Shown here: piece by piece, positions 1 through 19,228 of the stretch | Position numbering within the stretch: the stretch's first letter is position 1 | Layout of the letters: every line of letters begins with the position of its first letter | Translations under genes and position numbers: made by a program | NCBI RefSeq assembly: GCF_000422965.1 | Contig: NZ_AUHB01000002.1 | Location: forward strand, 326,119 to 350,118 | Direction of reading: 5' to 3' | Origin: Pleomorphomonas oryzae DSM 16300 | GTDB lineage: Bacteria; Pseudomonadota; Alphaproteobacteria; Rhizobiales; Pleomorphomonadaceae | DNA length: 24,000 bases | The notes under the pieces: model-generated | Seen by the model: the letters and a program-made list of their open reading frames with translations, nothing else | What the model was told of the DNA's origin: nothing | The model's database searches: none

Positions 1-88
1 CGTCTTTGTCGCAAAAATACTCTCTCAGAACTGCGTGGCGCTGTGCGGCGTCGTCAGGCAAGCAATCAAGCGCGATCTGCAGGACCAT
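1..88 (-). CDS. Partial hypothetical ORF (first 29 codons; continues past the left edge), immediately downstream of the radical SAM gene
   Basis: ATG at 88..86 lies 1 nt after the TGA (92..90) of the upstream gene. The frame stays open to position 1 (MVLQIALDCLPDDAAQRHAVLREYFCDKD...). It is too short to appear in the ORF track and has no recognisable motif. Confidence 0.3.
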   Translation of the reverse strand, partial: MVLQIALDCLPDDAAQRHAVLREYFCDKD

Positions 89-89
89 T

Positions 90-2315
90 TCACGCAGTTC
101 CAGGTTGCTGGCGCCTAGCCGCGTCTAGAGTCTCAATTAAAGCATTGCCCAGCGGCGTCATGCTACACGTTCGTAGAGTCGCGAAGCCGAGTTCAAGATT
201 GCGGTCGGTATCCTTGAGCTGGTTAAGCGCACGCTCACGCATATACTGAGGACCAGCTTCGAGTACATGAGCCCAAAACCGCTTGAGTTCGACGAACACG
301 AAGACGGCGTGCAGGAGGCCTGACGGCGGTCGCAAATCAGCGCGCCAAGGCGAGACAACCCGGGGAGCCGTCGGGCTAACCGTCGGGCCGAAACGCTCCA
401 GCAGATACAGTTTCTGGTGTCGGTGTTCGTGGACGAGTGAATCGGCGAGGTCGTACGGGTCGATCAGTTGTTGGCCCTGTGACACGGAAACAAATAAAGC
501 TCCAGGAACAGAGTCATCGCTGAAGGACACGATCTTCGCCGGATCCGCGGATGGATCGCGGACAAACTGGACAGCTCGACAGGCTCTCATTAGCTCGTCC
601 GCCAATGCTGGCCGCCACCGACGAACGATCTCGAGTGCATCATGAACCAGCGGCATTGCTTCTACAGCGATTCTCTGCGGTTCAAACTCTATCTGGTCGC
701 CAAAGGGTGCGCGCAACCACGCATCGTCCTCTGCTACAGCAAGCCCTCTAGGCCCCACCTTCCGGCTAGCCAACGCGCCCAGATATTCCCCATCTGCACG
801 AAGAGGCTTGCCGTCAACGTCATGTACCATGGAGCCTACGGCATCGGCGAGCATGGCTCGTGTCCAAGCGACGACGCCCGGCTCACTAGCAAGCTGGGTC
901 AAGAAACCCTCGCCACGTTCAATAAGCGCCTTGGCGGCTGCGGCAAGCTCATCACGCCGTAAAGCGTATTCAAGGGCAGAGCGAAAACGGGTTAAATAGG
1001 TCGAACGCGCGTCCTCAATCAGGAACTGCACTGCAGATTCTGAAGTCTCCGCTAGCTCGAAACGAGCCAAATCAAAATCAGGAGGAAGCCGAGAGCTTAA
1101 ATCCTCCATTCCCGCACTTAAGCCATCAGTGAGACGCATTTTGACGTGGGAAATTAGAGCGAATAGCTCGTCGCAGTAGACGGACGGGTTCTTGAAGCTG
1201 TTGCCGTCATAGCGATGTGGGACGGATCCCCCACCGCAGATCTCAACTACCGTGCAACCAAGACACTTGGCGCTAAGGCCGTCTTTTCGCAGAAGTGCTC
1301 TGTGGGCTTCAATCCCAGGAGATGTGGCTACCGCCGAGATAGCCGCATCTAGAACCGTGCCAGATAAGGCTGTGGCGCCGTCCCGCACGATCTTAAGAAC
1401 GTCGAGATCGTGATAGCTGCCGTCGGTTTCGATTGACAGGAGATTTACATCGCCAAAGCCAAAAGCATCCGTCGCAGAAGGCAAGCCGGCGGCGACGTCG
1501 AGCAGTGCCTCAAATGTGCGAACTGGCAGATGCGGATAGCGATCGAACCAAAGATCGAACGCGTGAATCAGCCATTCTTGGTATTGTAGCGGAAGCTGGT
1601 CGCGCCCTGGTGGTTGACGAAGATGATGGGCATCGGGGAGAAGGAAGTCGAGTTTCGGAGGGCGAAGCTCGTCAAAGAACGCAAACAGTTCTTCGGGAGC
1701 CACCGACGGATCAATTACAGCGATCACTCCAGCGAAGACGGCCGGCCGCTGTTGAAGCAACCGATAGCCCGCCATTACGCGATCAAAGCTTGATCGGCCC
1801 TTGTGGCTGGTTCGGTGAAGATCATTAGCCCACCGAGGCCCATCCAGGCTGAGCGAGACGGAAACGTCCGCCCTTTCCAATTCGTCAAGCGTCGTATTGC
1901 TAAGCAACAGTCCGTTAGTCTGCATTGCAAACTCAAGCTTGACTTCAGTTCCAACAGAAGCGCGCAACTCACCCGCGAAACTAACGATAGTATCCACGCC
2001 AGCTAACAGTGGCTCACCGCCATGGAAAACAATGACGGCGCGCTTCAGTGCGGCTTCCTTTGTATATTCAGAAAGGCGCGAGGCAAAAGCTTTCCGCACC
2101 TCAGCCGACATTGTCTTTGGCATAGTGCGCCAGCCTTGATCGGCATGATGGTATACATAGCAATAGTCGCAATCGAGATTGCATCGCGACGCGACTTTTA
2201 GCAGGAAGGAGGTGATCCGAGCTGCCACCAAGGTCAGCTCAAGAGCGATTATGCCGATGGTGCATGCGGTCGTAGCTCGTAATAACCTCACTAGCTTCCG
2301 CCGTCGCAAGGACAC
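90..2315 (-). CDS. Radical SAM/SPASM-domain peptide maturase fused to a C-terminal HExxH domain (FxsB-like architecture)
   Basis: 741-aa ORF starting at GTG 2315. Alternative TTG 2231 or GTG 2228 starts lie just after the stop of the upstream 60-aa ORF. SRCNLDCDYCY is the CxxxCxxC radical SAM motif. CLGCTVVEICGGGSVPHRY...PSVYC is a SPASM/twitch-like Cys cluster. LVHEHRHQKLYLLE is the HExxH motif in the C-terminal third. Confidence 0.85.
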   Translation of the reverse strand: MSLRRRKLVRLLRATTACTIGIIALELTLVAARITSFLLKVASRCNLDCDYCYVYHHADQGWRTMPKTMSAEVRKAFASRLSEYTKEAALKRAVIVFHGGEPLLAGVDTIVSFAGELRASVGTEVKLEFAMQTNGLLLSNTTLDELERADVSVSLSLDGPRWANDLHRTSHKGRSSFDRVMAGYRLLQQRPAVFAGVIAVIDPSVAPEELFAFFDELRPPKLDFLLPDAHHLRQPPGRDQLPLQYQEWLIHAFDLWFDRYPHLPVRTFEALLDVAAGLPSATDAFGFGDVNLLSIETDGSYHDLDVLKIVRDGATALSGTVLDAAISAVATSPGIEAHRALLRKDGLSAKCLGCTVVEICGGGSVPHRYDGNSFKNPSVYCDELFALISHVKMRLTDGLSAGMEDLSSRLPPDFDLARFELAETSESAVQFLIEDARSTYLTRFRSALEYALRRDELAAAAKALIERGEGFLTQLASEPGVVAWTRAMLADAVGSMVHDVDGKPLRADGEYLGALASRKVGPRGLAVAEDDAWLRAPFGDQIEFEPQRIAVEAMPLVHDALEIVRRWRPALADELMRACRAVQFVRDPSADPAKIVSFSDDSVPGALFVSVSQGQQLIDPYDLADSLVHEHRHQKLYLLERFGPTVSPTAPRVVSPWRADLRPPSGLLHAVFVFVELKRFWAHVLEAGPQYMRERALNQLKDTDRNLELGFATLRTCSMTPLGNALIETLDAARRQQPGTA

Positions 2316-2421
2316 GGCTGCGCAGACGCTGGATCGCCGGGTTGACGGATTGGGTCCGGAGCACTGCGGTCTTCAGGGATTCGTCGTGCATCTCTTGAGT
2401 GGGCTGACTTGCAGAGGACAT
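2239..2421 (-). CDS. Candidate RiPP precursor peptide (60 aa) for the adjacent radical SAM maturase
   Basis: The ATG at 2421 is preceded by AGGGAAG (SD-like) about 5 nt upstream. The TGA at 2241..2239 lies 7-10 nt before the alternative TTG/GTG starts of the maturase. The C-terminus is SYDRMHHRHNRS. There is no homology evidence, and the ORF overlaps the longest-ORF start of the maturase. Confidence 0.35.
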   Translation of the reverse strand: MSSASQPTQEMHDESLKTAVLRTQSVNPAIQRLRSRVLATAEASEVITSYDRMHHRHNRS

Positions 2422-2443
2422 GGCAACTTCCCTATACGTGTTT

Positions 2444-2486
2444 TTGACTACTGCAATCTACACAAGAAATCTTGACATTGCAATCT
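2444..2486. repeat. Direct repeat TTGAC(T)A(C)TGCAATCT, two copies
   Basis: TTGACTACTGCAATCT (2444-2459) and TTGACATTGCAATCT (2472-2486). The copies overlap the candidate -10 and -35 elements. Confidence 0.5.
2455..2483 (-). promoter_or_regulatory. Candidate sigma70-type promoter for the precursor/maturase operon
   Basis: On the minus strand, TTGCAA (2483..2478), a 17-nt spacer, then TAGATT (2460..2455), about 35 nt upstream of ATG 2421. It sits at the edge of an AT-rich tract. Confidence 0.25.
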
Positions 2487-2788
2487 CTTCAAAAACTATG
2501 CTTCATAGCAGCAGGCGTCGACAATAGAATTAAATATATACAGTATACTATGTGCATTAATTTGTAAAAAGTGGGCTAATTTATTGCGAATAAAGTGTAG
2601 TATGAAAATTACGACCGTTTGTTTGAATATTGTAATTTTCCAGATGAAAGAATACTTTGAATAAATTAAAGGGGATGGCGGGGGCTGAGTATTTTACATC
2701 ATTATGGCGCAACTCGATTTATTCCATTACGCAGCACTAAGTGGCGGCCTGGATAGCAACACTCTTGTGGGGACAACGGCAAAATCGC

Positions 2789-3391
2789 CTACCACATGCG
2801 AGCCGCCACCGCCCGCTCCTCCGATCCCATAACATGGGTGTAAATGGCGGTGGTGGCGATATCCGCATGCCCAAGCCAACGCTGAATGAGATCCAGCGGG
2901 ACACCACTGCGAACGGCATGCACGCCGAAGCCATGACGGAACCCCTTGGGCATGGCGTGATCACCGCGCACCCCAGCGGCCCTTAGAACCGTTTTGACAA
3001 CCCGCCATGCCGACACCCGGCTCCACAGCCAAAACCGCTCTTGTGGGTCTTCATGACCTTCGGCAAGGCCCTTCAGGGCGCTCAGCAGTTCCGGCGGTGC
3101 CGGAACCTCCCGGACGACGACCGTTCCCCGCTTTTTCAGGCACCGGACAGCCACAATCCCCTCCTCGAACTGAACGTCTTCGGGCCGCAAGGCCAAGGCT
3201 TCGCTAATGCGAAGCCCAAGAAGCATGAGCGTCAGGCAAAAGGCTCGCTCGTCAGAAGGTATTCCCGACAATACCTCAAGAATGCGCCGCCGTTCCTCAG
3301 CATTGATATATTTTCTCCGGCCATTCCGTGAATAAAGGGATGCTCCCGCGCTCCCGGCCTTTTCGCGCACGCTCCCGCTTTCCCTTGTCAT
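2789..3391 (-). CDS. Small tyrosine recombinase/integrase (catalytic domain only, 200 aa)
   Basis: LGLRISEALAL (Arg), HGFRHGFGVHAV (HxxR) and LGHADIATTAIYTHV (His...Tyr) are the classic phage-integrase catalytic motifs. Confidence 0.85.
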   Translation of the reverse strand: MTRESGSVREKAGSAGASLYSRNGRRKYINAEERRRILEVLSGIPSDERAFCLTLMLLGLRISEALALRPEDVQFEEGIVAVRCLKKRGTVVVREVPAPPELLSALKGLAEGHEDPQERFWLWSRVSAWRVVKTVLRAAGVRGDHAMPKGFRHGFGVHAVRSGVPLDLIQRWLGHADIATTAIYTHVMGSEERAVAARMW

Positions 3392-3400
3392 TGACCTGCG

Positions 3401-3435
3401 CCCCTGAAACAGAATTACCCATTCTGTTTCAGGGG
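3401..3435. repeat. Perfect 15-bp inverted repeat with a 5-nt spacer
   Basis: CCCCTGAAACAGAAT (3401-3415), TACCC, ATTCTGTTTCAGGGG (3421-3435). It begins 10 nt upstream of the recombinase start codon (3391). Confidence 0.9.
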
Positions 3436-3598
3436 ATTGGGGTTTGGCGCCTTTTCAATCGGTTCGGCGCACTTCCTTCAAATTATAAGCAAGCTACCCA
3501 CTCATAATCAACAAGTGAATACGCAAATTTCCAGCCAGAAAGACTTTGGGTAATTCCGTTTCACCTCATAAGGCTCTCCAGCGCGCGGCAGGTACGCT

Positions 3599-4786
3599 AT
3601 GAAGATCGTTCGAAGCGTGGCTTTTCTTCCTGTGTTGTTGCTTGCTTCCTCCCTGTTCGCTCGGGCCGATGACGGGCTCGGAAAATGGCAGTTCGACCCG
3701 AGCCCCGACACCCCTCACGCGACCCTCGATAGCGGCCCCGATTTTCCGAAGATTGAGGTGTCGTGTGTTGCTGCCGATGCTCTCGGCTACCGGTTCACGA
3801 TGCGAAACGGCGCAGCTCCCAACTACATCACGCTCCTTAACTACGATAACAACGAGGACCTCAGTATCGAGGCCTCGGGCTTCATGCCCCGGAAAAACGC
3901 CGCGCGTCTCATTGGCTGGTTGGCCGAGACCCTGAAGCAAGCCAAGGCGGACGGGAGCAACCGGCCCGAAAGCGAGTTCGTAACGCAGTTTGGCGTCAAC
4001 GGCGGCATGCCGACGCCCGTCCCGATCGGTGGGCTGATGGCCGTCCGTGAACGGCTACGCCCCCTATGCGCTGGAAATAAGGAAGCTGCTGCAACCTCAC
4101 CGGCATCGGTGCCGATGACGGATGGACCGAATGAGCGCTTTTACGGCGTGTGGCTGGGCCTGAACAGCGATCTGCACTTGAACCCGGACGGGACGTACAA
4201 GATCACATTCGCTGACCGTAGTGAGACCGGCAGTTGGTCGGCCAGTGAGACGGACTTGGTGTTCAAATCCGAGGAGTCTGTCTCGGTCTGTGGCTACGAC
4301 AAAACCGTTGAAACCCATCTCCTTCTCGCGCCATCCGCCAGCGCCGGGGCAAGCACGCCCTGCCGCATACAGGGGGCGTACTGGAGTGAGAAACGCGCGG
4401 AAACCAGCGCTTCCACGATGCCATTCGCCTGTACCGTGAATGCAAATGCCGTCCGGAGAATCTCAAGCCCACTGCTTCAGTTCAGAATATTCGATGGCTC
4501 AGGCCCTGTTCTTCTGGCCGCCGACAGCAAGGACAGGATCGTTTATCTCCACAAGGACGGCGTGGACAGGCATTTTGTCGTGCGTAACGACAACATCTAT
4601 CAGGACCATATTGCCTTTATGGTCAGATTCGACAAAGGAGATTTTCAGAACATCGAGATTTCGAAGGATGGCGGCATGTTTAACATGAGCTATTACCCAT
4701 CAAAATGCAGCCAATCCGGCGGTATGTCCGTATGTGCCCAAGTGGTTTCTTATCCCATTGGCACCTGCATGAAGGTGGTGCGATGA
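3599..4786 (+). CDS. Secreted hypothetical protein (395 aa)
   Basis: N-terminal signal peptide MKIVRSVAFLPVLLLASSLFARA/DD. Its stop overlaps the start of the next gene (ATGA at 4783-4786). No recognised domain. Confidence 0.7.
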   Translation: MKIVRSVAFLPVLLLASSLFARADDGLGKWQFDPSPDTPHATLDSGPDFPKIEVSCVAADALGYRFTMRNGAAPNYITLLNYDNNEDLSIEASGFMPRKNAARLIGWLAETLKQAKADGSNRPESEFVTQFGVNGGMPTPVPIGGLMAVRERLRPLCAGNKEAAATSPASVPMTDGPNERFYGVWLGLNSDLHLNPDGTYKITFADRSETGSWSASETDLVFKSEESVSVCGYDKTVETHLLLAPSASAGASTPCRIQGAYWSEKRAETSASTMPFACTVNANAVRRISSPLLQFRIFDGSGPVLLAADSKDRIVYLHKDGVDRHFVVRNDNIYQDHIAFMVRFDKGDFQNIEISKDGGMFNMSYYPSKCSQSGGMSVCAQVVSYPIGTCMKVVR

Positions 4787-5349
4787 CGGAGTCCCTCCCC
4801 ACCACCCTGAAATCCCCAAGGGAGCCGTCTTCCGTGCCTCGTTTGAACCTTTTGGCGGCCCTTGCCGCCCTGATCCTCACGGGCTGCTATCAGGTAAACG
4901 ATCCCGTCCTGACCAAGGGCGAGTATGCCCCCGTGGCGGGGTCGTATGCCTGCACCAACCGGCTGGACGGCTCGCCACTCGTCGACAGCCTTGTGGAGCA
5001 GAAAAGCGGCTTCTTCAGCCCGGATTACCGCTACCTGACCGACGACAAGGTCGAGGTGATGTTTGCTGACCTTGGTAATGGCCTCTACCTCTCGCAGGTG
5101 AACCAGAAAGGAAACCCCATTGCCTTGGCCTTCATGGAGCCGACCGCCAAGGGCATGGAGTTTTACGTGGTGAACGCCATGCTGGCGGCACCGCAGATCG
5201 ATACGCTCTCGCGTCAGAACGGCGTTACACCCCACCTGCTTCAGACGGGGTGGATACCGCTTTCGGGCACCGCCGCTGACATCAAGGCGTTCCTTGCCAG
5301 CCACTCGAAGGGAATGCTTCTGCCCGTCCTGAGCTGCACGAAGAAATAA
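4783..5349 (+). CDS. Putative lipoprotein (188 aa)
   Basis: An internal ATG at 4783 with GAAGGTGG upstream is preferred over the track start at 4705. LNLLAALAALILTGC is a signal peptide with a lipobox Cys. ATGA overlap gives translational coupling with the upstream gene. Confidence 0.65.
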   Translation: MTESLPTTLKSPREPSSVPRLNLLAALAALILTGCYQVNDPVLTKGEYAPVAGSYACTNRLDGSPLVDSLVEQKSGFFSPDYRYLTDDKVEVMFADLGNGLYLSQVNQKGNPIALAFMEPTAKGMEFYVVNAMLAAPQIDTLSRQNGVTPHLLQTGWIPLSGTAADIKAFLASHSKGMLLPVLSCTKK

Positions 5350-5371
5350 CGAAGCGAGACGCTTAGGTGCC

Positions 5372-5926
5372 CTATGGGGCGTAGGTCATGAGCCAGACCT
5401 TAAATTCAGGGCGCATTTTCCCAATTGAAGCAAGGTAAAGCGCAATATCAAACCGGCGATGTCCTTCAATGAGCAAATACCCTTTGGGAATAGGATGATA
5501 GGTTGGAACGGGATCAATTCCTGGCTGAAGGTGACCGTCGAGATTGTTCAGGACAATAATGGGCGCTGGGAAATCGCCGTGTTCGAACATGTACGCTGGC
5601 GTTTTGTAGGGCGAATTCCTGAGCCTTCTCACTATGGCTTGTCCACGTTCACGACATACTCTCTGATCTCCGCTGAAGTTCGACGAGCCAGACAAAATGC
5701 TTTCCAGACATTCTGGAGTCCAATCCACCAGATCAAATCGATACCAAGCGGACGGAAGGTAGCTAAATGGCGAGTGGCTCCAGTGCTCGTGGAGCCAAAA
5801 TCTCGCAACGTTCTCCGGCACGCGGGGGAAAGCATCGCGGACGCGAGCCCACCACTCCTCAAATGGAGTGGCTACTCCTCCACCCTCTTCAAATTCGGGA
5901 GCAAGATGCACGGGATAATTGTCCAT
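5372..5926 (-). CDS. Hypothetical protein with a C-terminal ParB/Srx-like GHRR motif
   Basis: The ORF track gives 5372..6028. I prefer Met35 (MDNYPVHL..., 5926) because the 6028 start overlaps the upstream gene by 38 nt. LLIEGHRRFDIALYL resembles the ParB N-terminal domain GxxR motif. The assignment is weak. Confidence 0.5.
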   Translation of the reverse strand: MDNYPVHLAPEFEEGGGVATPFEEWWARVRDAFPRVPENVARFWLHEHWSHSPFSYLPSAWYRFDLVDWTPECLESILSGSSNFSGDQRVCRERGQAIVRRLRNSPYKTPAYMFEHGDFPAPIIVLNNLDGHLQPGIDPVPTYHPIPKGYLLIEGHRRFDIALYLASIGKMRPEFKVWLMTYAP

Positions 5927-5990
5927 TCTGCTCTCTCGCCTGGCTACTTCATGTTTGAAAGCCAGCCATAGAGGTATCGGCCGAGTGGGT

Positions 5991-6857
5991 CTATCGCCGG
6001 TAAGGCAAACGGCGGATGTAAGTTTCATCTCGCAGGGCTTGAAGACGCTGTTCCAGAGTCGGATGTGTTGACAGAAGCGTCTTCGGATTGGCGCGGATCA
6101 TCATCCGGGCATAGGCGAGGTATTCCGGGGACGGCTGTGCTCGGTCGGCATGGATGTCCCGAAGGGCCTCCATCATGGCGTCCTTGCCGATAAGGGCCGC
6201 TCCGGTGGCGTCGGCCCAGAACTCCCTTGTCCGGGAGAGGCGCATCAGCATCAGTTCGCCCAGGAACCCGAGGATCCACCGCACGAAGACCTTCCCGCGT
6301 TCCCACCAGAAAAGATACCACGTGAGGGCGTTCTGGAACGAGGTGGCATACTGCATCCGCCGCATGTCCCGGTTGGCCACATGAGCCAGCTCGTGCGCGG
6401 CGATCGCCAGAATGCTGCGCGCCGGTAGTCGGTCCACAAGGCTCTGGCTGAAACTCACCACGGCTTTTTGCGGGGATGAACCCGCCGCGAAGGCGTTCAT
6501 GGCCTGATCCGGGTAGACGCCAACGGATGGGCACGGGATGTCCAGCTTCGTGGCCAGTGCCGCCACCCCTTTTGTCAGCGGATGATCTGCCGGAAGAATC
6601 TTGGTTCGGGTATGGCTGATGACCCGGTCGCGGGACCGGGACACGCCGATCGAGCCGAACACAAAGCCAAAGACCGGCACAAACAACAGCGCCGGGAAGA
6701 AGAACGTCACGACAGCCAGTGTGCCGAAGCCCGTAAGGCCCAAGAGAATGCTGCCTAGGAAAACCCCGAGCCAGGCGCTCAGGATCAAAGCGATTTTCTG
6801 CCCAACGCCGCCGTGGGCAAGGCGGCGGGTATCCAGTTCCGGTAAGGTCGCGCTCAT
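5991..6857 (-). CDS. Membrane-anchored M48-family (HtpX-like) zinc metalloprotease
   Basis: N-terminal hydrophobic helices (ALILSAWLGVFLGSILLGLTGFGTLAVVTFFFPALLFVPVFGFVFGSIGV). AAHELAHVANRD carries HExxH. The start lies 3 nt after the stop of the upstream ATPase gene. Confidence 0.8.
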   Translation of the reverse strand: MSATLPELDTRRLAHGGVGQKIALILSAWLGVFLGSILLGLTGFGTLAVVTFFFPALLFVPVFGFVFGSIGVSRSRDRVISHTRTKILPADHPLTKGVAALATKLDIPCPSVGVYPDQAMNAFAAGSSPQKAVVSFSQSLVDRLPARSILAIAAHELAHVANRDMRRMQYATSFQNALTWYLFWWERGKVFVRWILGFLGELMLMRLSRTREFWADATGAALIGKDAMMEALRDIHADRAQPSPEYLAYARMMIRANPKTLLSTHPTLEQRLQALRDETYIRRLPYRR

Positions 6858-6860
6858 AGC

Positions 6861-8522
6861 TTATTCCCCCACGGTATAAGCCCCGGCCCGTTCCTTCAGC
6901 GACGGGCTCAGGGAATACTCGGTCAGATGCAGCTTGGTCGGCCGAAGCCCGCGCACCTGTAAAATGCTCTGGCGGATGCCCCGGCCCGTCCAGCCTGAAA
7001 GCAGCTCCATCACCTCATCCGGCGTGAGCAGGGGGCGCCCGGTAAGCTCCACGGAGTCGGAAGGTTCTGCGGAAAGATCCCGGTTCCCGGAAAAGGATCG
7101 ATAGGCCACCGTGGTTTGCCCGAGATAGCTTCCCACCAGCCCGCCAGTCATCGGATCGTCGACCCCGAAGAACTGCTTCACGGAGCAATTGAAGAACGGA
7201 CGCCAGGCATCCTGAGGATAATGCTCACGCAGGGCGCCCTCGTCTTGAAGGAAGAACCAGAGGCGCACGCCCGCACCCGCATGGGTGCGAATGGCGTCCC
7301 GGAATTCCGGGTAGGAGCCGAGCGACAGGAATTCATCGAGGACGAAGAGGACGGGGATATCCGGCCGGGTCGGGTTCCGCGTCATCGCGCTCAAGGCGGA
7401 GCGCAGGATGACTTTGAGCCACGGGGCGTAAGGCGTCATGAGATCAAACGGCACATCGAGGTAGACCGTGGCGGGCCGGTCTTTTAGATCCTCGAAATCG
7501 AAATCATGCTGGCTGCATGTCTGGTAGATACCGTCATCGCTCCACAGGGACAGTTTGGCGTTGAGCGTGTCGCGCAAGGTGGGGAGTGCTTTGCCGCGAT
7601 CCTTGCCCAGAACATTGGTGGCCGCTTCCTGAACGCTGGGCATGTCGTCCAGCCCCGCCATGAGGGAGGCCAGAGCCCTGAAGTCATCCAGCGGTGCCGC
7701 CAGAAACCGCCGCACCGTGCCGAGGTGGCGCAGAGGCTCGGGGCACTTTTTCTTCACGTAAAGAATCGTGGCCGTCACGAAGGCCACGGCGTCTTCGATG
7801 AAGAACGCCGATGCACGGGGATCGGCGGGAAACATGAGTTCCGCAAGGGCACGGGCGTCCGATTGGGACCGGACGCGCGCCAGCGGGTTATAGCTGCTCC
7901 GGATAAAGTTCGCCGTTGTGGGGTTGGTGCCGTCATCGAACGGGGCAAGCCGGTAGACGGGGCCGACGTTTTCCCGGCGCCACTTGGACGTGGCCGCGTA
8001 CAGCTCTCCCTTGGGGTCGAGGACAACGGCGCTGCCCTTGTACCGGAGCAGGTTCGGTATGATCGCTGTGACGCCCTTACCCGACCGTGTCGGCGCAAGG
8101 GTGAGCAGATGCCCCTCTTCGTCCCAATGAAAGAAGCGTGGCCCGCTTTGCCCTTGAAAGGTCCCCAGAACGATGGAGCGTGGGTTGTCCAGGGCCTCCC
8201 GTCCCTTGAGTTGGTTCCCAATCTCGCTCTCATCCGCCCACCGGCCCGAGCCGTGGATGGGCGGTGGTGAAGTCAGAAGATCGTCCCGTTCCTTCTGGGC
8301 TTTGCGGGCTCGCTCGGCCCTTTCCAGAACACCCCGGTGGTCTTTGCCTGCCTTGATAGCGTCCACAACGTCTTGAGCTATCTGGGGACCATAAAGGGCA
8401 TCGACCTGGTTCCGGACACGCCTCGCGTGCAGCGTCCGGAAGAACCAGGTGCTCGCTTTGTGATAGTGCTGAAAGTCCCCTAACGTCCGCGACAGGTCGC
8501 CGACCGGATCGAAATCTTTCAT
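6861..8522 (-). CDS. TraG/VirD4-family type IV coupling protein-like ATPase with no N-terminal transmembrane region
   Basis: GSGRWADESEI, Walker A LAPTRSGKGVTAIIPNLL and Walker B PVLFVLDEFLSLG. There is no hydrophobic stretch in the first ~150 aa. Confidence 0.8.
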   Translation of the reverse strand: MKDFDPVGDLSRTLGDFQHYHKASTWFFRTLHARRVRNQVDALYGPQIAQDVVDAIKAGKDHRGVLERAERARKAQKERDDLLTSPPPIHGSGRWADESEIGNQLKGREALDNPRSIVLGTFQGQSGPRFFHWDEEGHLLTLAPTRSGKGVTAIIPNLLRYKGSAVVLDPKGELYAATSKWRRENVGPVYRLAPFDDGTNPTTANFIRSSYNPLARVRSQSDARALAELMFPADPRASAFFIEDAVAFVTATILYVKKKCPEPLRHLGTVRRFLAAPLDDFRALASLMAGLDDMPSVQEAATNVLGKDRGKALPTLRDTLNAKLSLWSDDGIYQTCSQHDFDFEDLKDRPATVYLDVPFDLMTPYAPWLKVILRSALSAMTRNPTRPDIPVLFVLDEFLSLGSYPEFRDAIRTHAGAGVRLWFFLQDEGALREHYPQDAWRPFFNCSVKQFFGVDDPMTGGLVGSYLGQTTVAYRSFSGNRDLSAEPSDSVELTGRPLLTPDEVMELLSGWTGRGIRQSILQVRGLRPTKLHLTEYSLSPSLKERAGAYTVGE

Positions 8523-8639
8523 GGCAGATGCCCCACAGAGGGCAGCCTGCCGCAGTTTTCCAAATGTTAATATTTGTGGCGAATGCGTATCGTCGGTTGA
8601 GTATCTAGTGACTTACCCGCAAGGCATCCGATGCCCTAG

Positions 8640-9557
8640 TCAATATCGCCCGTGCCATGATCTCGCTAGCCGGTCGGAGAGACGCTGCTTGGCGGTGCGA
8701 TCAGCGTCAGGGTCGAACTCATCGTCTTCTTCTTCGAATTCAGGCCATAGCATAAGCAGCGCATAGCCTTCCTGCTGATGAAGAACTTGCTCGTAAAGAG
8801 CGGGCGGGCGCTTGCCCCATTCAGATATGAGCCATTGGTCACTAGAAGCTTCCTCAAGCTGGGATATTGCAGTCAATCCGCGTGTGCGCCAATAAATGCA
8901 AGATCGAGGCACTAAGCCGCCTTGCTCCACGCTAAGACGAGGAGCTTTTAGAGCCCGATAAGACCGCAAGACCTTGCCTTCATGGACAACAATCATGGTG
9001 ATAGGCTCACCATGATACAGCGTATAAGCACGCGCGGCGGCGTCTTTACTAACTTCGAAGTCTTTATGAATCCGGAGGACGGTAGCAATATTGGGGTCAC
9101 CGTAGCGTGAAAGGTAAGGGCGCAGCAGCGGCGGCGGCATGAGCATTAACGCGGCAAACTTGTTTGCCTCCACTTCCATGCGCTCATAAGCGTTCTGCTC
9201 AGCTGCCGACCAGAGTCGCATATCGTCGCGAGAGCAAAGGAAAGCATCGTTCTTCACTGGCCGGTGCATTGGGATGAGGAAGTGCCCGAGTTCATGCCCG
9301 ATGGTGAATCTGCGGCGCCCAGCGCGCGCCAGCTTGTTAACAAGGATGACGCCGCGACTACGGTGGGCATCCATCAATAGGCTACCTTCGAAACCTTCCG
9401 CTTCAAGCTCGCGGATTTCGATAATATCGAGTGCAGCTGCCAGCGCCTCGATCGGCACAGGTGGGGCGAGTCCCGGCTCGGCTTTTAGAATTTTGGTCAC
9501 AAGCCCCTCAGGGGAGCCTGTTCCATCCAAATCGAGCCGGGTTATCTGCATGCTCAC
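8640..9557 (-). CDS. ImmA/IrrE-family metallopeptidase with an extra C-terminal domain (305 aa)
   Basis: FTIGHELGHFLIPMH carries HExxH. A 4-nt overlap with the upstream XRE gene is typical of repressor/antirepressor-protease pairs. Confidence 0.85.
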   Translation of the reverse strand: MSMQITRLDLDGTGSPEGLVTKILKAEPGLAPPVPIEALAAALDIIEIRELEAEGFEGSLLMDAHRSRGVILVNKLARAGRRRFTIGHELGHFLIPMHRPVKNDAFLCSRDDMRLWSAAEQNAYERMEVEANKFAALMLMPPPLLRPYLSRYGDPNIATVLRIHKDFEVSKDAAARAYTLYHGEPITMIVVHEGKVLRSYRALKAPRLSVEQGGLVPRSCIYWRTRGLTAISQLEEASSDQWLISEWGKRPPALYEQVLHQQEGYALLMLWPEFEEEDDEFDPDADRTAKQRLSDRLARSWHGRY

Positions 9558-9874
9558 CCATCCTTGCTTTTTAAGCGCTCGATCATTTGCTGAATGACAT
9601 CCAAGTCTCGACCGGAAAGGTCCTTTAGTTCCCGATACATTCCCAGCACCCGAGACCCTTCCTCTTCCTCTGAGGGATTCTCACCAACGAGATCGATAAC
9701 GGCAACGCCTAGCTTGTTCGCCAGGTTGGTGAGCAGCTCTATCGATGGATTCTTGCTGCGTCCGGTTTCCAGGTCCCAAATATGAGCCTTTGACACTTTC
9801 GTCGCGTCAGCCAGGTCCTGCAGCGACAACTTTTTTTTCATCCGGAACGCTTTGATCCGGTCCGCAAGGGCCAT
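9554..9874 (-). CDS. XRE-family helix-turn-helix transcriptional regulator (106 aa)
   Basis: RIKAFRMKKKLSLQDLADATKVSKAHIWDLETGRSKNPSIELLTNLANKLGV is the canonical Cro/C1-type HTH pattern. Confidence 0.9.
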   Translation of the reverse strand: MALADRIKAFRMKKKLSLQDLADATKVSKAHIWDLETGRSKNPSIELLTNLANKLGVAVIDLVGENPSEEEEGSRVLGMYRELKDLSGRDLDVIQQMIERLKSKDG

Positions 9875-9929
9875 TACCTACCTCTAAGTTGTTGATTATA
9901 AGCGAGGACATTCCCTGTCCATACGAATT

Positions 9930-9976
9930 TGTACCAGAATACTTGACTCCCGGCAATGTACAACTTAATCTGTACG
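9930..9976 (+). promoter_or_regulatory. Candidate sigma70 promoter of the ubiquitin-like operon with TGTAC operator-like repeats
   Basis: TTGACT (9943-9948), a 17-nt spacer, then TAATCT (9966-9971). TGTACC (9930-9935), TGTACA (9957-9962) and TGTACG (9971-9976) lie in the 146-bp divergent region between the XRE gene and the 10021 ATG. Confidence 0.35.
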
Positions 9977-10020
9977 AAAGTGTTTGGTCATCCGAACGCT
10001 GAGTCAAGAAAGGGCCTGCC

Positions 10021-10737
10021 ATGACCATTATCGATACGGCGGAAGGCGATCTCGCCAATGATCGCGACCGGTTCACCGCCCAGATTGCCGACGAGACGTT
10101 TGCGTTTCGCGACTTTCACTTCAACGACCGGAGAGTAACGGGTTCGCAGATTGCCGAAGCGTTCGGCGCATATCCGCTGACCGATTATGTGGTCCTCCAT
10201 CACCTTCCGAACCACCAGCTTGAAACGCTTCGGCCGAATGAGACGGCGGACCTGAAAGACGGCGCCCACCTGTTCGTCATCAGGGGCGACGGTACTGACC
10301 GTTTCTTCGTTGACGGCATCCCTCTCGAATGGCCACGCAAGGCTTTGACAGGCGCTAACATCAAATGGTTGGCCGGAAAGGATGAGGATCTTGAGCTGGT
10401 GCTGGAGCGTCAGGATCAGCCAGACAAGGTTATCGGCGATGATGAAGAAGTCCGCATAGGCAACCCAGGTGTTGAAAAGCTCTACACTCGCCCTGCGCAG
10501 GTCAGCATAACCATTGTCGTCAATACTCGGCCGAAGGTCTGGAACAAGAAGCGGATTAGCTTTGAAGAGCTGGTCGCTATCGCGTTTCCGACGCCGCCTC
10601 CTGGTCAGAATATCGTCTACACGATTGGCTATTTTGACGGCCCTCCGAACCGGCCGGAAGGTTCACTAACCGAAGGGGAATCTGTGCGCGTCCGCGACCA
10701 GATGGTGTTCGATGTCAAATTCACTGATAAGTCTTAA
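10021..10737 (+). CDS. Multiubiquitin-type protein with three tandem beta-grasp-like repeats (238 aa)
   Basis: Three repeats of about 65-75 aa. The second reads FFVDGIPLEWPRKALTGANIKWLAGK...EVRIG. The third reads ITIVVNTRPKVWNKKRISFEELVAIAF...ESVRVRDQMVF. An AAAGGG SD-like element precedes the ATG. Recognised by pattern, not by search. Confidence 0.75.
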   Translation: MTIIDTAEGDLANDRDRFTAQIADETFAFRDFHFNDRRVTGSQIAEAFGAYPLTDYVVLHHLPNHQLETLRPNETADLKDGAHLFVIRGDGTDRFFVDGIPLEWPRKALTGANIKWLAGKDEDLELVLERQDQPDKVIGDDEEVRIGNPGVEKLYTRPAQVSITIVVNTRPKVWNKKRISFEELVAIAFPTPPPGQNIVYTIGYFDGPPNRPEGSLTEGESVRVRDQMVFDVKFTDKS

Positions 10738-11878
10738 CCCCGACCTCCAACAGCTCGTGGCAGAGGGCTACGAGCTTGAGATTGTTGCGGACCATCTTGT
10801 TGTCCGCAACGTCCCCTTCGTCAATGCGGAGCGACAGGTTCGGCGCGGCTCACTTATCTCCGAGCTGAACCAGGCGTCCCGAATACCGGGGACGCACGTC
10901 ATCATGTTTGAGGGTGGCATTCCTTGCAACAAGAGCGGGATGCCTCTCAACCAAATCTTCCTTTCTACGGATCAGCAAAAGATCGCTGAGCGCCTCGTGG
11001 CTGATTGTTCGTTCTCGAGCAAACCCCCGGAGGGCTATCCCAATTATTATTTGAAGGTCACGTCATACGTCGCAATTTTGCAGAACGAAGCGCAGGCAAT
11101 TGACCCAAGCGCTACTGCACGGACTTGGCGCGTTATCCCTAACACAGATGCCGACTCCCCCTTTGAATATCTCGATACCGCGTCCAGTCGTGCAGGCACT
11201 ACCTATGCGAGTCGCAAACTAAAGCAGGAAAATGTTGCTATTGTGGGGCTCGGTGGCACAGGATCCTACGTGCTGGATCTCATCGCCAAGACGCCAGTTC
11301 GCAACATTCATCTCTTCGATGGCGACAAGTTCGGCCAACATAATGCGTTTCGCTCGCCCGGCGCGCCGTCACTGGGGCATCTCCAGACCATCCCTTACAA
11401 GGTGGACCATTGGGCGAGCATCTACAGCAATATGCATCGTGGCATTGTCCCGCACCGCGCCTCAATCGATGCCGAGAATGTCCATTTATTGAATGAAATG
11501 GACTTCGTGTTTGTGTGTGCTGATGCTGGTTCAGCAAAGAGTTCTCTCTTCGCGGAACTGGAGCGCGCGGGTGTTCCTTTTATCGATACGGGCATGGGGC
11601 TGGATCTCGCAGGGGACACGCTGCATGGCATGCTCACCGTTACGCTCAGCACGCCCAACAAGCGGGACCATGTTTCTAAACGCGTATCGTTTGCCGGGGA
11701 TGGCCACGAGAATATTTACGCGAAGAATATCCAGGTTGCGGATCTTAACATGCTCAATGCAGCGCTGGCTGTGGTGAGATATAAGAGGTTTCTCGGTTTC
11801 TACGATGATAAACGGCGTGAGCATTTCATGAATTATGTGATTAGCGGCAACACGCTTATCAGCGAGGATCGGACATGA
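10712..11878 (+). CDS. ThiF/E1-like adenylyltransferase with a ~173-aa N-terminal domain of unassigned (possibly E2-like) function
   Basis: NVAIVGLGGTGSYVLDLIAKT is the Rossmann GxGxxG motif. IHLFDGDKFGQHNAFRSPG is the ThiF-type motif. The N-terminal domain contains THVIMFEGGIPCNKSG. It overlaps the upstream gene by 26 nt. Confidence 0.85.
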   Translation: MSNSLISLNPDLQQLVAEGYELEIVADHLVVRNVPFVNAERQVRRGSLISELNQASRIPGTHVIMFEGGIPCNKSGMPLNQIFLSTDQQKIAERLVADCSFSSKPPEGYPNYYLKVTSYVAILQNEAQAIDPSATARTWRVIPNTDADSPFEYLDTASSRAGTTYASRKLKQENVAIVGLGGTGSYVLDLIAKTPVRNIHLFDGDKFGQHNAFRSPGAPSLGHLQTIPYKVDHWASIYSNMHRGIVPHRASIDAENVHLLNEMDFVFVCADAGSAKSSLFAELERAGVPFIDTGMGLDLAGDTLHGMLTVTLSTPNKRDHVSKRVSFAGDGHENIYAKNIQVADLNMLNAALAVVRYKRFLGFYDDKRREHFMNYVISGNTLISEDRT

Positions 11879-12324
11879 GGCCTCCCGTTATTCTGCGTCA
11901 TGTGTTCGTCGATTCCGTGCCTGAACAGATGGAAGATGGAGTTATCTATGTCTCCATTCGCTACCGTACCGTTATGCACCGGTGTTGTTGCGGATGTGGA
12001 AGCGAGGTGGTCACACCACTAAGTCCGACCGATTGGAAACTCACCTTCGATGGAGTGTCGGTGTCGCTGGACCCGTCAGTTGGTAACTGGAGCCTGAATT
12101 GTCGTTCTCACTACTGGATAAAGAACAACAAAGCGGTTTGGGCTGGCGCTTGGTCGGACGAGAAGGTTGCTGCTGGCAGGGTAAACGATAAGCAGGTCAA
12201 GGAGCGTTATTTTGACCGATCCAGTCCAGCCCAGCCATCAGGGCCTATTGCCGCACCTTCGAAGATGACAAATGGATGGACTGCTCGGATCAGATCTCTT
12301 TTTTCCAAGTTTTTGCGACACTAA
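11875..12324 (+). CDS. DUF6527-like Cys-rich protein (149 aa)
   Basis: ATGA overlap with the E1 gene. HRCCCGCGSEVVTPLSPTDWKL...LDPSVGNWSLNCRSHYWI matches the pattern I recall for DUF6527 proteins found beside multiubiquitin and ThiF genes. Confidence 0.7.
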   Translation: MRPPVILRHVFVDSVPEQMEDGVIYVSIRYRTVMHRCCCGCGSEVVTPLSPTDWKLTFDGVSVSLDPSVGNWSLNCRSHYWIKNNKAVWAGAWSDEKVAAGRVNDKQVKERYFDRSSPAQPSGPIAAPSKMTNGWTARIRSLFSKFLRH

Positions 12325-12338
12325 GAGTGAGAGAAAAT

Positions 12339-12809
12339 ATGGGGGACGGTCATAACTTTAGGCAACTAAAGGAGGCAATTCTCGCCCACAGCCAAGCGCA
12401 AGACTGGGAAATTGCACGCAAGGAATGGAGCCTCGTTCGCGTAGCTACCGCCGATGAGCCGGAGACTTGCCCATGCGGGCATTTCCCGATTCTTGAGATT
12501 TGCACCATTGCTAATCAGATAACTGGACACCGGATCGATGTGGGGAACCGCTGCGTTAAGCGGTTTCTAGGCGTGCGTTCGGATCTGATCTTCGCGGCCA
12601 TTAAGCGCATTCAATCGAATATAGAGAAGAGCCTGAATGGTGATGCCATCGTCTTCTTTCATCAATGTGGTGTTCTAAATAATTGGGAATACAGCTTCCT
12701 TCAGGATACGATGCGACTACGACAGTTAACCCTTGCTCAGAAAGTTAAACGGCAGTCAATCAACGAAAAGGTCATTGCCGCCGTCGCGAAGCGAGGATTC
12801 CATGGATAA
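12339..12809 (+). CDS. Hypothetical protein with a CxCGH...C...C putative metal-binding motif (156 aa)
   Basis: Start moved to ATG 12339 (GAGTGAGAG upstream), 14 nt after the previous stop. The motif is ETCPCGHFPILEICTIANQITGHRIDVGNRCVKRF. Confidence 0.6.
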   Translation: MGDGHNFRQLKEAILAHSQAQDWEIARKEWSLVRVATADEPETCPCGHFPILEICTIANQITGHRIDVGNRCVKRFLGVRSDLIFAAIKRIQSNIEKSLNGDAIVFFHQCGVLNNWEYSFLQDTMRLRQLTLAQKVKRQSINEKVIAAVAKRGFHG

Positions 12810-13519: not shown

Positions 13520-13822
13520 TCACCACGAAATCACCAGTTCCGGATATTCTCCCGCGCTCAAAGGGCGGCGGATATCCGGCTCGGTGAACGTCGGTCGCCA
13601 GACGTAGTGGAACTCCTCCTCATCAAGCCATTCCTCAAGGGCGCGAGCCGCGTCGGTATCTGACAGGTCGAACGGCAGCTCCTGGACAATGCGGTAATGC
13701 CGATATCCTTGGAACGCGACCTCGTCGATAGCCGTAGCAACGGCTGCCGGGCTGAATATCTTGCCCGCATACTTGTTCCGCAGGTTGGTCGCCATCATGA
13801 AATTTCCCTCGGAGCGTTTCAT
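13520..13822 (-). CDS. Hypothetical acidic protein (100 aa), translationally coupled to the upstream integrase
   Basis: Only the last 100 codons of track ORF 13520..14323 are credible. ATG 13822 overlaps the integrase TGA (ATGA). The sequence begins MKRSEGNFMMATNLRNKYAGK... and contains ...EEWLDEEEFHYVW. Confidence 0.5.
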   Translation of the reverse strand: MKRSEGNFMMATNLRNKYAGKIFSPAAVATAIDEVAFQGYRHYRIVQELPFDLSDTDAARALEEWLDEEEFHYVWRPTFTEPDIRRPLSAGEYPELVISW

Positions 13823-14694
13823 TGGAAGGCGCTCCCCAGGTACACGTCGGTGACTTTCAGGCGTCCATGGCCCAACTCGCCGGAAATATGGTGACGGGCG
13901 GAGCGGTCGGCCTCGCGTTCCTTGGCGGTCATGTCTGCCCAACGCTTGCCGCCAGCCAACGGGCAGGCTTGGCCGGTCAGCACCGCATAGCGCTGCTGGG
14001 CATAGGCGTGTCGAAACCCGTGCGTGTTGCGGATGCCCGCTTTGAGGGTTTGGTACTCGAACCGTTTGAGCTGTTCGACATAAGTGAGTTGCGCGGGAAT
14101 GAGAGAGCCGCGACCTGGTACGAGCCTCACGACGTGCTGAAGCACCTGTCGCTGTTCCAGGGTGGCGATAGGTATCGTGCGCGCCCGCCCTCCCTTGGTC
14201 CAACTGGAATGTAAAGCGATATGGTCGGAGCGGATTGCTACTTGGGGCTGGAACTTCATGGCCTCCTCGCGCCGCAGGCCAAACGCGGTCTGCAACAGGA
14301 TGGAAGCCTTGATATGCGGGCATTCAATGCTCTGGAATTTCGTATGGTCGAGGATCTGCGCGCGGTTGCGCGTGACCTCTCCCCGTTCGGCAACGCCGTA
14401 GGTAGCGTTATCGCGGCTGACGACATTCGGTTTGTTGATCTTTTCGGCCCACCAACGGAGCCAGGTCAGGCGGTTGCGGATGCTGGCGTCCGTCATGTCG
14501 GCATCGAGCCACCTTTCCACCAGCGCCTCAACGTGTTTGGGCTTGAGGGAGGCAGCCGACGGCAATTTATAGCCGAGATCGCTTAAGTCGTCCGCCATCG
14601 CGGTTAATCCACGTCGGCGGTTCGTTTGTGTGCCGTAAGAGCCGTCCTTGTTGCGGTGGCACAGCCGCACCAAGTCCATGGTCAAATCGCCCAT
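13819..14694 (-). CDS. Tyrosine recombinase of the plasmid/prophage integrase-domain type (291 aa)
   Basis: FGLRREEAM (Arg), HGFRHAYAQQRY (HxxR) and GHGRLKVTDVYLG (His...Tyr). N-terminal KPKHVEALVERW...LTWLRWWAEKINKPNVV. AAGGAAG lies 9 nt upstream of the ATG. Confidence 0.8.
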   Translation of the reverse strand: MGDLTMDLVRLCHRNKDGSYGTQTNRRRGLTAMADDLSDLGYKLPSAASLKPKHVEALVERWLDADMTDASIRNRLTWLRWWAEKINKPNVVSRDNATYGVAERGEVTRNRAQILDHTKFQSIECPHIKASILLQTAFGLRREEAMKFQPQVAIRSDHIALHSSWTKGGRARTIPIATLEQRQVLQHVVRLVPGRGSLIPAQLTYVEQLKRFEYQTLKAGIRNTHGFRHAYAQQRYAVLTGQACPLAGGKRWADMTAKEREADRSARHHISGELGHGRLKVTDVYLGSAFQ

Positions 14695-15235: not shown

Positions 15236-15830
15236 TCACCCACCTTCAGCCCCGCCCCATGCTCGTATCCTGGCGCGCATCCGACACGGGTGGCAACTAT
15301 GCCCTGCCCGCGACAACCCGCCAGTCGTGTGCCGCCGCTACGCGGTCTCCCGAGCACAGACTGGCAGAACGCCGCTTAAGGCAGAGCAACACTGCCCATC
15401 GACGACGCTTTATTGACTTGCAAAAGGGACCGCGCTTCGCCTGGGGGAATGTGATTAACAGCCGCCCCAAAAGGTAAACGATTACGCAGCAAACGACCTC
15501 GAAGCTCCCATGCACCGTTATCGATCTGACTTTCATGCCGTTGCGCTTCAACTGAAATGCTGTTGTCTCTTTCTGTTGATCTTTAAAGGAAGTACAAGGA
15601 ATCGCCCAATTTGGCATTTCCCCGCTATCGAGCTAGTGTTAATTAGATAAGGTATTGGACAATTTTCTAGAGATTGCTCAGCCTCACATAGTGTGAAATA
15701 TAGTGTAATCTGAGTTATTTTCCGTCGTGCGTGTAAACATAGTGGACTAATCTCTAAGAGATATAATATATTTATGTAGAATTTTGCCACGAAAAGTCTG
15801 CTGTCGTGTAAATGAACCCAGGAGAAAAAA

Positions 15831-16571: not shown

Positions 16572-16611
16572 CAATTTCAATGTATTGGTCGTCGATTGGG
16601 GGGGGGGCATT

Positions 16612-17520: not shown

Positions 17521-17525
17521 AACGA

Positions 17526-18924: not shown

Positions 18925-19228
18925 CGGAATCGGTCCCTAAAACGCGACACATTCTTCTAGAGTTGACATATTAGCTCTAGATCTCAGGTGAGTGAGGGAG
19001 GTATCTCGGTAGTCGCAGTTTGAGGAAGGGTACCTGATGGAAGTGCTCTGAGTCACCGTTTATGGAATCGGAAGTTGTGAAAAAGGTACCTAAACTTTTG
19101 GCGAACGTTTGGAAAAGGCTTGCCAGGGAATTGGCTCGGCAAATTGAAGGGATCGGTTGACGCTGTATTTTTGCACTCCGAACATCTGTACATTGGCCGA
19201 TCGGTATGGTGCGGTAGCTACCTTATTG

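Follow-up and report, generated by a model that had tools for sequence, protein, structure and literature searches.

The stretch of Pleomorphomonas oryzae DSM 16300 DNA analysed here (24,000 nucleotides, hereafter the window) carries at its left end a set of genes on the minus strand. Read in the direction of transcription, these are yhhA (2239–2421 including the stop codon), encoding the 60-aa triceptide precursor MSSASQPTQEMHDESLKTAVLRTQSVNPAIQRLRSRVLATAEASEVITSYDRMHHRHNRS; yhhB, also written yhhBH (90–2228), encoding a 712-aa fusion of a radical SAM/SPASM cyclophane synthase with an α-ketoglutarate (aKG)-HExxH β-hydroxylase; and the first 29 codons (1–88) of a further operon gene that leaves the window. 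Upstream of yhhA lies an AT-rich spacer (2422–2788, 37.6% GC), presumed to be the promoter or regulatory region, followed by a minus-strand gene for a 200-aa tyrosine recombinase comprising the catalytic domain only (2789–3391; PF00589, E 4.2e-23). Promoter and terminator scans upstream of yhhA returned nothing above chance, and an Rfam search that included the spacer found no family. Nucleotides 1–2421 very probably make up the 5′ portion of a triceptide RiPP operon of yhh/chl type, whose bifunctional maturase works by the mechanism proposed below.

The extent of the maturase gene required correction. A mechanical ORF runs from 90 to 2315 (minus strand) without an internal stop, and the first-pass annotation had described a polypeptide of 741 aa. 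The start at 2315 is rejected because it collides with yhhA and conflicts with the N-termini of the homologs. About the first 25–29 codons of the 741-aa ORF cover yhhA, which is read in another frame. The RefSeq protein 'YhhB [Pleomorphomonas oryzae]' (712 aa) is 100% identical to the window maturase and, together with all homologs, begins with M-x-x-A-R-I-T-S-F. Judged from sequence, the polypeptide almost certainly starts at GTG 2228, 87 nt downstream of the mechanical start, and is 712 aa long. RefSeq already uses the gene symbols yhhA and yhhB.

The N-terminal half of YhhB (residues 5–368, nucleotides 1125–2216) is a radical SAM/SPASM domain of the three-residue cyclophane-forming (3-CyFE) type. 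It matches the YhhB equivalog model NF041707 (487.9 bits against a cutoff of 445, E 1.7e-146, model positions 1–367 of 369) and the FxsB subfamily model TIGR04269 (487.1 bits against 370, E 2.9e-146), both matches spanning residues 34–397 in the numbering of the 741-aa ORF. The solved ChlB radical SAM domain (PDB 9gm3) is matched over residues 4–369 with E 1.1e-137. The CxxxCxxC motif CNLDCDYC (C16/C20/C23, nucleotides 2160–2183) is invariant in an alignment of 16 homologs. Beyond it, the sole invariant cysteines in this alignment are those of a C322-x2-C325-x5-C331 plus C352 arrangement (nucleotides 1173–1265), in which CLGCTVVEIC occupies 1236–1265 and the VYC containing C352 occupies 1173–1181. 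Ser335 takes the position of the fourth cysteine of the canonical SPASM motif. The presence of only four auxiliary cysteines implies a single auxiliary cluster.

The C-terminal half (residues 385–703, nucleotides 120–1076) is a ChlH-like aKG-HExxH β-hydroxylase domain. It matches TIGR04267, the model for aKG-HExxH-type peptide β-hydroxylases, with 133.5 bits against a cutoff of 40 (E 7.8e-39), and the ChlH structure (PDB 8s5f) over residues 385–703 with E 7e-77. Its HEHRH sequence (H600–H604, nucleotides 417–431) supplies a 2-His-1-carboxylate motif made up of H600, E601 and H604 and is invariant among the 16 aligned homologs. The CxxxCxxC motif, the auxiliary cysteine cluster and HEHRH, which had been listed as features of one polypeptide, were thus all located, with family-model E-values far beyond chance. 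The family models and the ChlB and ChlH structure matches also bear out the earlier assignment to the FxsB branch of three-residue-cyclophane radical SAM/SPASM maturases, here fused to a peptide-modifying HExxH domain.

Two other identities for the enzyme were weighed. The maturase might be a radical SAM protein outside RiPP biosynthesis, such as an anaerobic sulfatase maturase (anSME) or another SPASM protein maturase, and it does give weak anSME matches (TIGR03942, E 4.5e-38; PDB 4k37, E 8e-17); one homolog, from a metagenome record, is even named 'anaerobic sulfatase-maturating enzyme'. The TIGR03942 score of 131.3 bits is far under the cutoff of 349.45, so that anSME identity is rejected and the grouping with sulfatase maturases that would have undermined the first-pass annotation was not observed. 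The cluster contains no sulfatase gene, and a cognate RiPP precursor is encoded 10 nt upstream of the maturase. Models of other cyclophane maturases fit no better: XyeB reached 148.2 bits against 450 and GrrM/OscB 103.4 against 310, and membership in the XyeB, GrrM, DynA and DarE groups is rejected on scores far under the cutoffs. A role outside RiPP maturation is accordingly left with a vanishingly small probability. A different possibility is that the C-terminal domain cuts off the leader as a zinc metalloprotease instead of acting as a hydroxylase, since HExxH is the classic zincin motif and the cluster has no conserved dedicated leader protease. Against this stand the TIGR04267 score and the ChlH structure match given above, as well as PMC12636437, in which an ortholog once annotated as a metallopeptidase was shown to act as an aKG/Fe hydroxylase. 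A protease is highly improbable on this evidence, with the caveat that PflC, a related HEXXH enzyme, can cleave backbones too, which makes a side activity possible. The reading of YhhB as a cyclophane synthase fused to a peptide β-hydroxylase is retained in what follows.

The precursor had been thought to be missing and the product to be unknown. The ORF at 2239–2421 (minus strand) lies inside the window, upstream of the maturase gene, and matches NF041705 (RIPP_cyclo_YhhA) with 59.4 bits against a cutoff of 36. A Shine-Dalgarno-like GGGAAG ends 6 nt upstream of its ATG. In related loci, small ORFs homologous to yhhA likewise end 10–25 nt ahead of the radical SAM gene. The core peptide ITSYDRMHHRHNRS (nucleotides 2242–2283) contains the Ω-X-Arg motifs YDR, HHR and HNR in the layout YDR-M-HHR-HNR-S. 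It is invariant in a 14-sequence alignment drawn from Alpha-, Beta- and Gammaproteobacteria, Cyanobacteria and Actinomycetota; among the loci compared, the form TSYDRMHHRHNRS occurs in 34 and a variant ending in HSRS in 22. That the 14-residue core stays invariant across phyla while the leaders diverge implies strong selection on the function of the His/Arg-rich product. The core is also identical to that at the locus of Chlorogloeopsis, the source organism of ChlBH, and the product is therefore predictable rather than unknown.

Enzymes of the radical SAM-HExxH family were characterised between 2022 and 2024. The YhhA/YhhB triceptide system was reportedly described by Sugiyama et al. in JACS in 2022, and the ChlA/ChlBH system of Chlorogloeopsis sp. 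(cyanobacterium PCC 7702) is said to have been described by Morishita et al. in Nat Chem in 2024. The characterised YhhB is WP_013448981.1, and the P. oryzae copy is likened to that system through the curated models: both NF041705 and NF041707 are passed, and the core has the same Y...H...H layout with Arg as the cross-linked third residue. Like YhhB of P. oryzae, ChlBH has an N-terminal radical SAM/SPASM and a C-terminal aKG-HExxH domain in a single polypeptide, and the protein of its locus is 47% identical over 709 aa. The chl locus has the same core, TSYDRMHHRHNRS, and arginase-like and GNAT genes downstream as well. It differs in its host (a cyanobacterium there, an alphaproteobacterium here), in its leader (YhhA and ChlA leaders are only about 37% identical), in having the arginase-like and GNAT parts unfused, whereas P. 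oryzae has one 498-aa ORF, and in the GT2 gene: one follows in the P. oryzae operon, and none turned up at the chl locus. FxsB of the actinobacterial FxSxx-COOH system shares the radical SAM/SPASM subfamily model TIGR04269, and FxsB-family genes are often paired with HExxH genes. The actinobacterial FxsB matches, however, are only 36–39% identical and cover the radical SAM half only, and the precursors differ: no FxsA (FxSxx-COOH) peptide was matched as the cognate precursor, which here is YhhA, ending in ...HRHNRS.

The fusion architecture, singled out as noteworthy before, proves ordinary. It is the standard form of the YhhB family, the same layout with the radical SAM domain N-terminal being common to more than 120 homologs of 676–731 aa (about 710 aa) from at least six phyla, and the family has crystal structures (9gm3, 8s5f), an NCBIfam equivalog and RefSeq symbols. 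The closest relatives (76–81% identity) all belong to the Hyphomicrobiales, as does the host. By sequence, the P. oryzae genes are an ordinary and already annotated example of the known yhhA/yhhB (ChlA/ChlBH-like) pair.

The cross-linking and hydroxylation chemistry proposed for P. oryzae YhhB is taken from the literature on its orthologs. According to PMC11002830, YhhB forms Tyr-C3/Arg-Cβ and His-C2/Arg-Cβ links, and PMC11499958 adds an HNR cyclophane. PMC12636437, citing Morishita et al. (Nat Chem 2024;16:1882), describes the radical SAM-fused HExxH protein as an aKG non-haem iron enzyme that β-hydroxylates Asp and His within a cyclophane scaffold installed beforehand. For the yhh system, PMC12186529 ascribes erythro-β-OH-Asp to 'YhhC', a name that may stand for the HExxH portion or for another protein. 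By analogy, the YhhA leader, with its conserved NPAxQRL segment, would dock on the maturase. The radical SAM/SPASM domain would cleave SAM reductively at the C16/C20/C23 cluster, take the Cβ hydrogen from each Arg and link this Cβ to the aromatic ring of the residue two positions before it. Three three-residue cyclophanes would result, joining Tyr-C3 to Arg-Cβ in YDR and His-C2 to Arg-Cβ in HHR and HNR. The HExxH domain, with Fe(II) held by H600/E601/H604, would then use α-ketoglutarate and O2 to β-hydroxylate residues of the finished rings, which in ChlA are Asp and His. From sequence we infer that the P. oryzae copy is active.

The surroundings of the cluster raise the question of its origin. 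A small recombinase and an AT-rich junction had been reported next to it and are present, at 2789–3391 and 2422–2788. The further proposal that the cluster is island cargo remains plausible; the adjoining recombinase and the mosaic composition stand, while the recombinase is not conserved next to related clusters and neither att-like repeats nor a tRNA accompany it. In its strongest form this proposal makes the cluster the recently acquired cargo of an adjacent integrative/conjugative element. The region to the right is indeed a mosaic of mobile DNA, with tyrosine recombinases at 2789–3391, 13819–14694 and 19712–21082, a TraG/VirD4 coupling protein (6861–8522) and an ImmA/IrrE-type M78 peptidase. 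GC content ranges from 41% to 63% along the window, and GC3 is 0.56 in yhhB against 0.75 in the TraG and M48 genes. Rhizobium and Novosphingobium also carry yhhB on conjugative megaplasmids, and in Methylobacterium gossipiicola a homologous small recombinase lies close to the cluster (49% identity, 4.7 kb away).

That case and a weak match at one other locus are, however, the only recombinase homologs near the cluster among 80 related loci; the gene is lacking in the other 78, and the recombinase is rejected as a part of the cluster. The window contains no direct repeats suited as att sites (only chance-level repeats of 16–18 nt) and no tRNA genes, and the left boundary lies beyond it, with only about 2 kb more sequence on that side. 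A megablast search of window positions 1–12400 against plasmids gave a single 76-bp match. In other genomes the GC content of yhhB follows that of the host flanks, from 0.41 to 0.67, which points to long residence there, and the nearest relatives come from the host's own order, as noted above. The element may simply have inserted next to a resident cluster. Recent acquisition as cargo of the neighbouring element is a real possibility that falls short of an even chance.

To the left, the operon continues as had been suggested from the ATG at position 88 (minus strand), which lies four bases past the TGA stop of yhhB (TGAAATG). In more than 55 related loci, yhhB is directly followed by a gene in which this N-terminus is conserved. 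Inspection of the genes left of the window, for which a 2.9-kb Logan contig is 100% identical to positions 1–860 and extends about 2 kb leftward, did not reveal the precursor there; it did show the operon going on with an arginase-like/GNAT gene and a GT2 glycosyltransferase gene. The full product of the former, with the same N-terminus as the window gene, has 498 aa and consists of an OspR-like peptide-arginase-fold domain fused to GNAT. The order in P. oryzae is yhhA, yhhB(H), arginase-like/GNAT gene, GT2 gene. Operon order is kept across 80 genome loci, and the cluster has neither a conserved protease nor a conserved exporter.

The arginase-like domain matches OspR (PDB 8brp) by profile with E 2.5e-7, and OspR is also the top Foldseek hit of its predicted structure (E 1.6e-7, target TM 0.53–0.56). 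The fold is the same at only about 16% identity. PF12640, the family of OspR, gives 13.4 bits against a gathering threshold of 27 for the downstream gene product, and no member of the downstream-gene family reaches the Pfam threshold (best E 2.4e-4; 24/28 members). The metal motifs DxHxD and (L/H)IDLDYF align with those of OspR, whereas the EEH motif is absent, the OspR EEH(N/H)EAF being replaced by LYDSWTL in P. oryzae; the fusion to GNAT also sets the domain apart from OspR. These genes may tailor the product further. As a tentative proposal, rather unlikely to be right, the third gene of yhh/chl operons would encode a divergent peptide arginase outside PF12640 that converts at least one cross-linked Arg of the YhhA core to ornithine; GNAT would N-acylate the ornithine, and in some lineages a GT2 could add a sugar to the product.

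For annotation, the locus shows a 60-aa precursor gene masked by a long ORF call, with the start of the maturase shifting 87 nt downstream. The maturase itself is one more ortholog in a family for which solved structures, curated HMMs and RefSeq names already exist, and the only potentially new lead lies in the accessory part, comprising the arginase-like/GNAT and GT2 genes. An OspR-like arginase-fold gene with GNAT, publicly annotated as 'hypothetical', occurs in nearly every cluster, which suggests that the true end product of these operons has not yet been described. If the proposed arginase, GNAT and GT2 tailoring takes place, the mature product would differ substantially from the ChlBH- and YhhB-modified peptides described so far.

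The maturase gene at the left end of the window encodes a radical SAM/SPASM-HExxH fusion, and this enzyme class had been read correctly from the raw sequence by the first-pass annotation. All the motifs claimed are present on the minus strand: CNLDCDYC (nt 2160–2183), CLGCTVVEIC...VYC (nt 1173–1265) and HEHRH (nt 417–431), the last containing H600/E601/H604 (numbering of the 712-aa protein throughout), and the HMM E-values of 1e-146 lie far beyond chance. In the mechanical open reading frame (90..2315, minus strand; 741 aa counted from the first GTG), residues 34–397 score 487.9 bits with the NCBIfam model NF041707, 'cyclophane-forming radical SAM/SPASM peptide maturase YhhB' (curated cutoff 445 bits), and 487.1 bits with TIGR04269, the broader FxsB subfamily (cutoff 370). 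Residues 557–729 match TIGR04267, 'aKG-HExxH-type peptide beta-hydroxylase', at 133.5 bits (cutoff 40). Identities as anSME (131 bits versus a cutoff of 349), XyeB (148 versus 450) and GrrM/OscB (103 versus 310) were rejected, as were DynA, DarE and other families, which scored below even GrrM/OscB and missed their cutoffs widely.

The 5.8 billion proteins searched include a 100% identical RefSeq entry of 712 aa, 'cyclophane-forming radical SAM/SPASM peptide maturase YhhB [Pleomorphomonas oryzae]', and more than 120 further matches at 56–81% identity. Every one of the latter is 676–731 aa long; thus the rSAM-HExxH fusion is the usual form of the family and no peculiarity of the P. oryzae locus. 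Two PDB structures match the P. oryzae maturase: 9gm3, the radical SAM domain of ChlB, aligns with its N-terminal half (E 1.1e-137), and 8s5f, ChlH from Chlorogloeopsis, with its C-terminal half (E 7e-77); the protein of the ChlBH locus (L048, cyanobacterium PCC 7702) is 47% identical to the P. oryzae maturase over 709 residues. The yhhA/yhhB pair of P. oryzae is orthologous to ChlA/ChlBH, and the system has been both characterised and annotated before.

The start and the precursor required revision. The RefSeq protein and all homologs open with M-x-x-A-R-I-T-S-F, which matches a GTG at 2228 and not the start at 2315 adopted earlier. The 29 surplus codons of the mechanical frame overlap, in a different frame, a 60-aa open reading frame (2239–2421, minus strand) whose ATG is preceded at 6 nt by a GGGAAG ribosome-binding site. 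This small frame scores 59.4 bits with NF041705, 'YhhA family cyclophane-containing RiPP' (curated cutoff 36), and its homologs in 80 genome loci, collected by a profile search with the maturase, terminate 10–25 nt before the maturase gene. The NF041705 match, the conserved small frame and a core shared with Chlorogloeopsis place the precursor inside the window, upstream of the enzyme. It had been sought to the left of the window and the product called unknown; with yhhA in hand, the product is predictable.

The core comprises the last 14 residues, ITSYDRMHHRHNRS (2242–2283, minus strand; alignment A5). It is invariant among 14 aligned sequences from Alpha-, Beta- and Gammaproteobacteria, Cyanobacteria and Actinomycetota, in which the YhhA leaders drop to about 35–40% identity, and the locus of Chlorogloeopsis, from which the crystallised ChlB and ChlH come, carries it unchanged. 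Within the 80-locus set, TSYDRMHHRHNRS occurs in 34 loci and its N-to-S variant in 22. Such conservation across several phyla is unusually strict for the core of a RiPP, whose product here is rich in His and Arg.

YhhB is described as joining C3 of Tyr, and likewise C2 of His, to the C-beta of Arg (PMC11002830) and as making an HNR cyclophane (PMC11499958). An rSAM-fused HExxH protein is reported to beta-hydroxylate Asp and His of its precursor, only after cyclophane installation (PMC12636437, citing Morishita et al., Nat Chem 2024;16:1882), and erythro-beta-hydroxy-Asp in the yhh system has been credited to a 'YhhC' (PMC12186529). By analogy with the orthologs, this chemistry should carry over to P. 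oryzae: the rSAM domain would form three predicted rings, YDR, HHR and HNR, and the HExxH domain, whose H600/E601/H604 are invariant in the homolog alignment, would hydroxylate ring residues. In the same alignment, the only invariant cysteines C-terminal to the rSAM motif are C322, C325, C331 and C352 (Cx2Cx5C...C), and a Ser occupies the fourth Cys position of the canonical SPASM CX2CX5CX3C (nt 1173–1265, minus strand). These four cysteines and the Ser suggest that the maturase may carry one auxiliary [4Fe-4S] cluster, not two.

The region to the right of the cluster is a mosaic, and the window contains three tyrosine recombinases. At 5991–8522 (minus strand), an M48 (HtpX-like) peptidase adjoins a 553-aa type IV coupling protein of the TraG/VirD4 type; this pair, whose GC3 of about 0.75 differs from that of neighbouring genes, is part or a remnant of a conjugative element. 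The stretch 8640–12324 holds a ubiquitin-like conjugation cassette of the type known from defence or mobile islands: an M78/ImmA-IrrE peptidase, then a triple multiubiquitin protein (PF14452), an E1-like protein with DUF6791 and ThiF, and a DUF6527 protein. Mesorhizobium (L043) and Fischerella (L049) have homologous cassettes within a few kb of their yhh/chl clusters. Integrase genes at 13819–14694 and 19712–21082 flank a block (15500–19000; 41–47% GC, strong positive GC skew) encoding an SDR, a 336-aa protein of unknown function, a 2OG-Fe(II) oxygenase and a SAM methyltransferase, probably a small-molecule modification cassette acquired separately.

That the yhh cluster is itself island cargo, as first proposed, is possible but less likely than not. 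The small recombinase and AT-rich junction on which the proposal drew do adjoin it: a 200-aa tyrosine recombinase reduced to the catalytic domain (2789–3391, minus strand; PF00589, E 4e-23) and a spacer of 37.6% GC upstream of yhhA (2422–2788). The GC3 of yhhB, 0.56, lies below the 0.75 of the TraG and M48 genes, and conjugative megaplasmids of Rhizobium and Novosphingobium also carry yhhB. However, a clear recombinase homolog stands near the cluster in just one of the 80 loci, that of Methylobacterium gossipiicola (L008, 4737–5315; 49% identical, 4.7 kb away), and is absent there from the other close relatives. No att-like repeats or tRNA were found in the window, the GC of yhhB tracks that of the host in other genomes, and the closest relatives belong to the host's own order. 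To the left, the sequence covered extends to the end of L081, a 2.9-kb public contig, short of the left boundary.

The operon does run on leftward from yhhA/yhhB, as had been noted: the ATG at 88, four bases past the TGA stop, begins 29 codons (1–88, minus strand) that form the N-terminus of the 498-aa protein P0125, recorded as 'GNAT family N-acetyltransferase [P. oryzae]'. L081, 100% identical to window positions 1–860 and reaching further left, completes the gene (773–2269 of L081), a fusion of a ~330-aa domain with GNAT. The two parts are separate genes in most other genomes; the ~330-aa gene follows the maturase in 79 of the 80 loci, the ChlBH locus included, and GNAT is present in 74. 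The ~330-aa domain has no Pfam or NCBIfam match at normal thresholds, and PF12640 is the top, sub-threshold Pfam match in 24 of 28 members. A profile of the domain hits 8brp, the structure of the peptide arginase OspR, with E 2.5e-7, pairing LHVDDHRDL with LHVDEHSDL and LHIDLDYF with LDIDIDYF. For an AlphaFold model (mean pLDDT 86.6), 8brp chains are the top three Foldseek PDB matches (E 1.6e-7, target TM 0.53–0.56) and the C-terminal domain matches polyamine and aminoglycoside N-acetyltransferases. PF12640 proteins have three signature motifs, EEH(N/H)EAF among them (PMC12703449); the ~330-aa domain keeps two (DxHxD and IDLDYF) but lacks EEH(N/H)EAF. By profile, sub-threshold Pfam match and predicted fold, this 'hypothetical' domain resembles OspR. 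Because the profile, the sub-threshold Pfam match and the fold all point towards a peptide arginase, conversion of Arg to Orn in the three-Arg core, followed by N-acylation, would be a reasonable hypothesis.

A GT2/GT-A glycosyltransferase gene follows (L081 2304–2867, left of the window). Homologs occupy the equivalent position in 47 of the 80 loci and were not found there in the cyanobacterial chl loci of the set, which suggests that glycosylation of the product is lineage-specific. On the Rhizobium etli plasmid pRetMIM1e, RefSeq annotates yhhA, yhhB, a 'hypothetical protein', a 'GNAT family protein' and a 'glycosyltransferase family A protein'. The conserved arginase-like, GNAT and GT2 genes, which may tailor the product, are the sole part of the locus that may be new.
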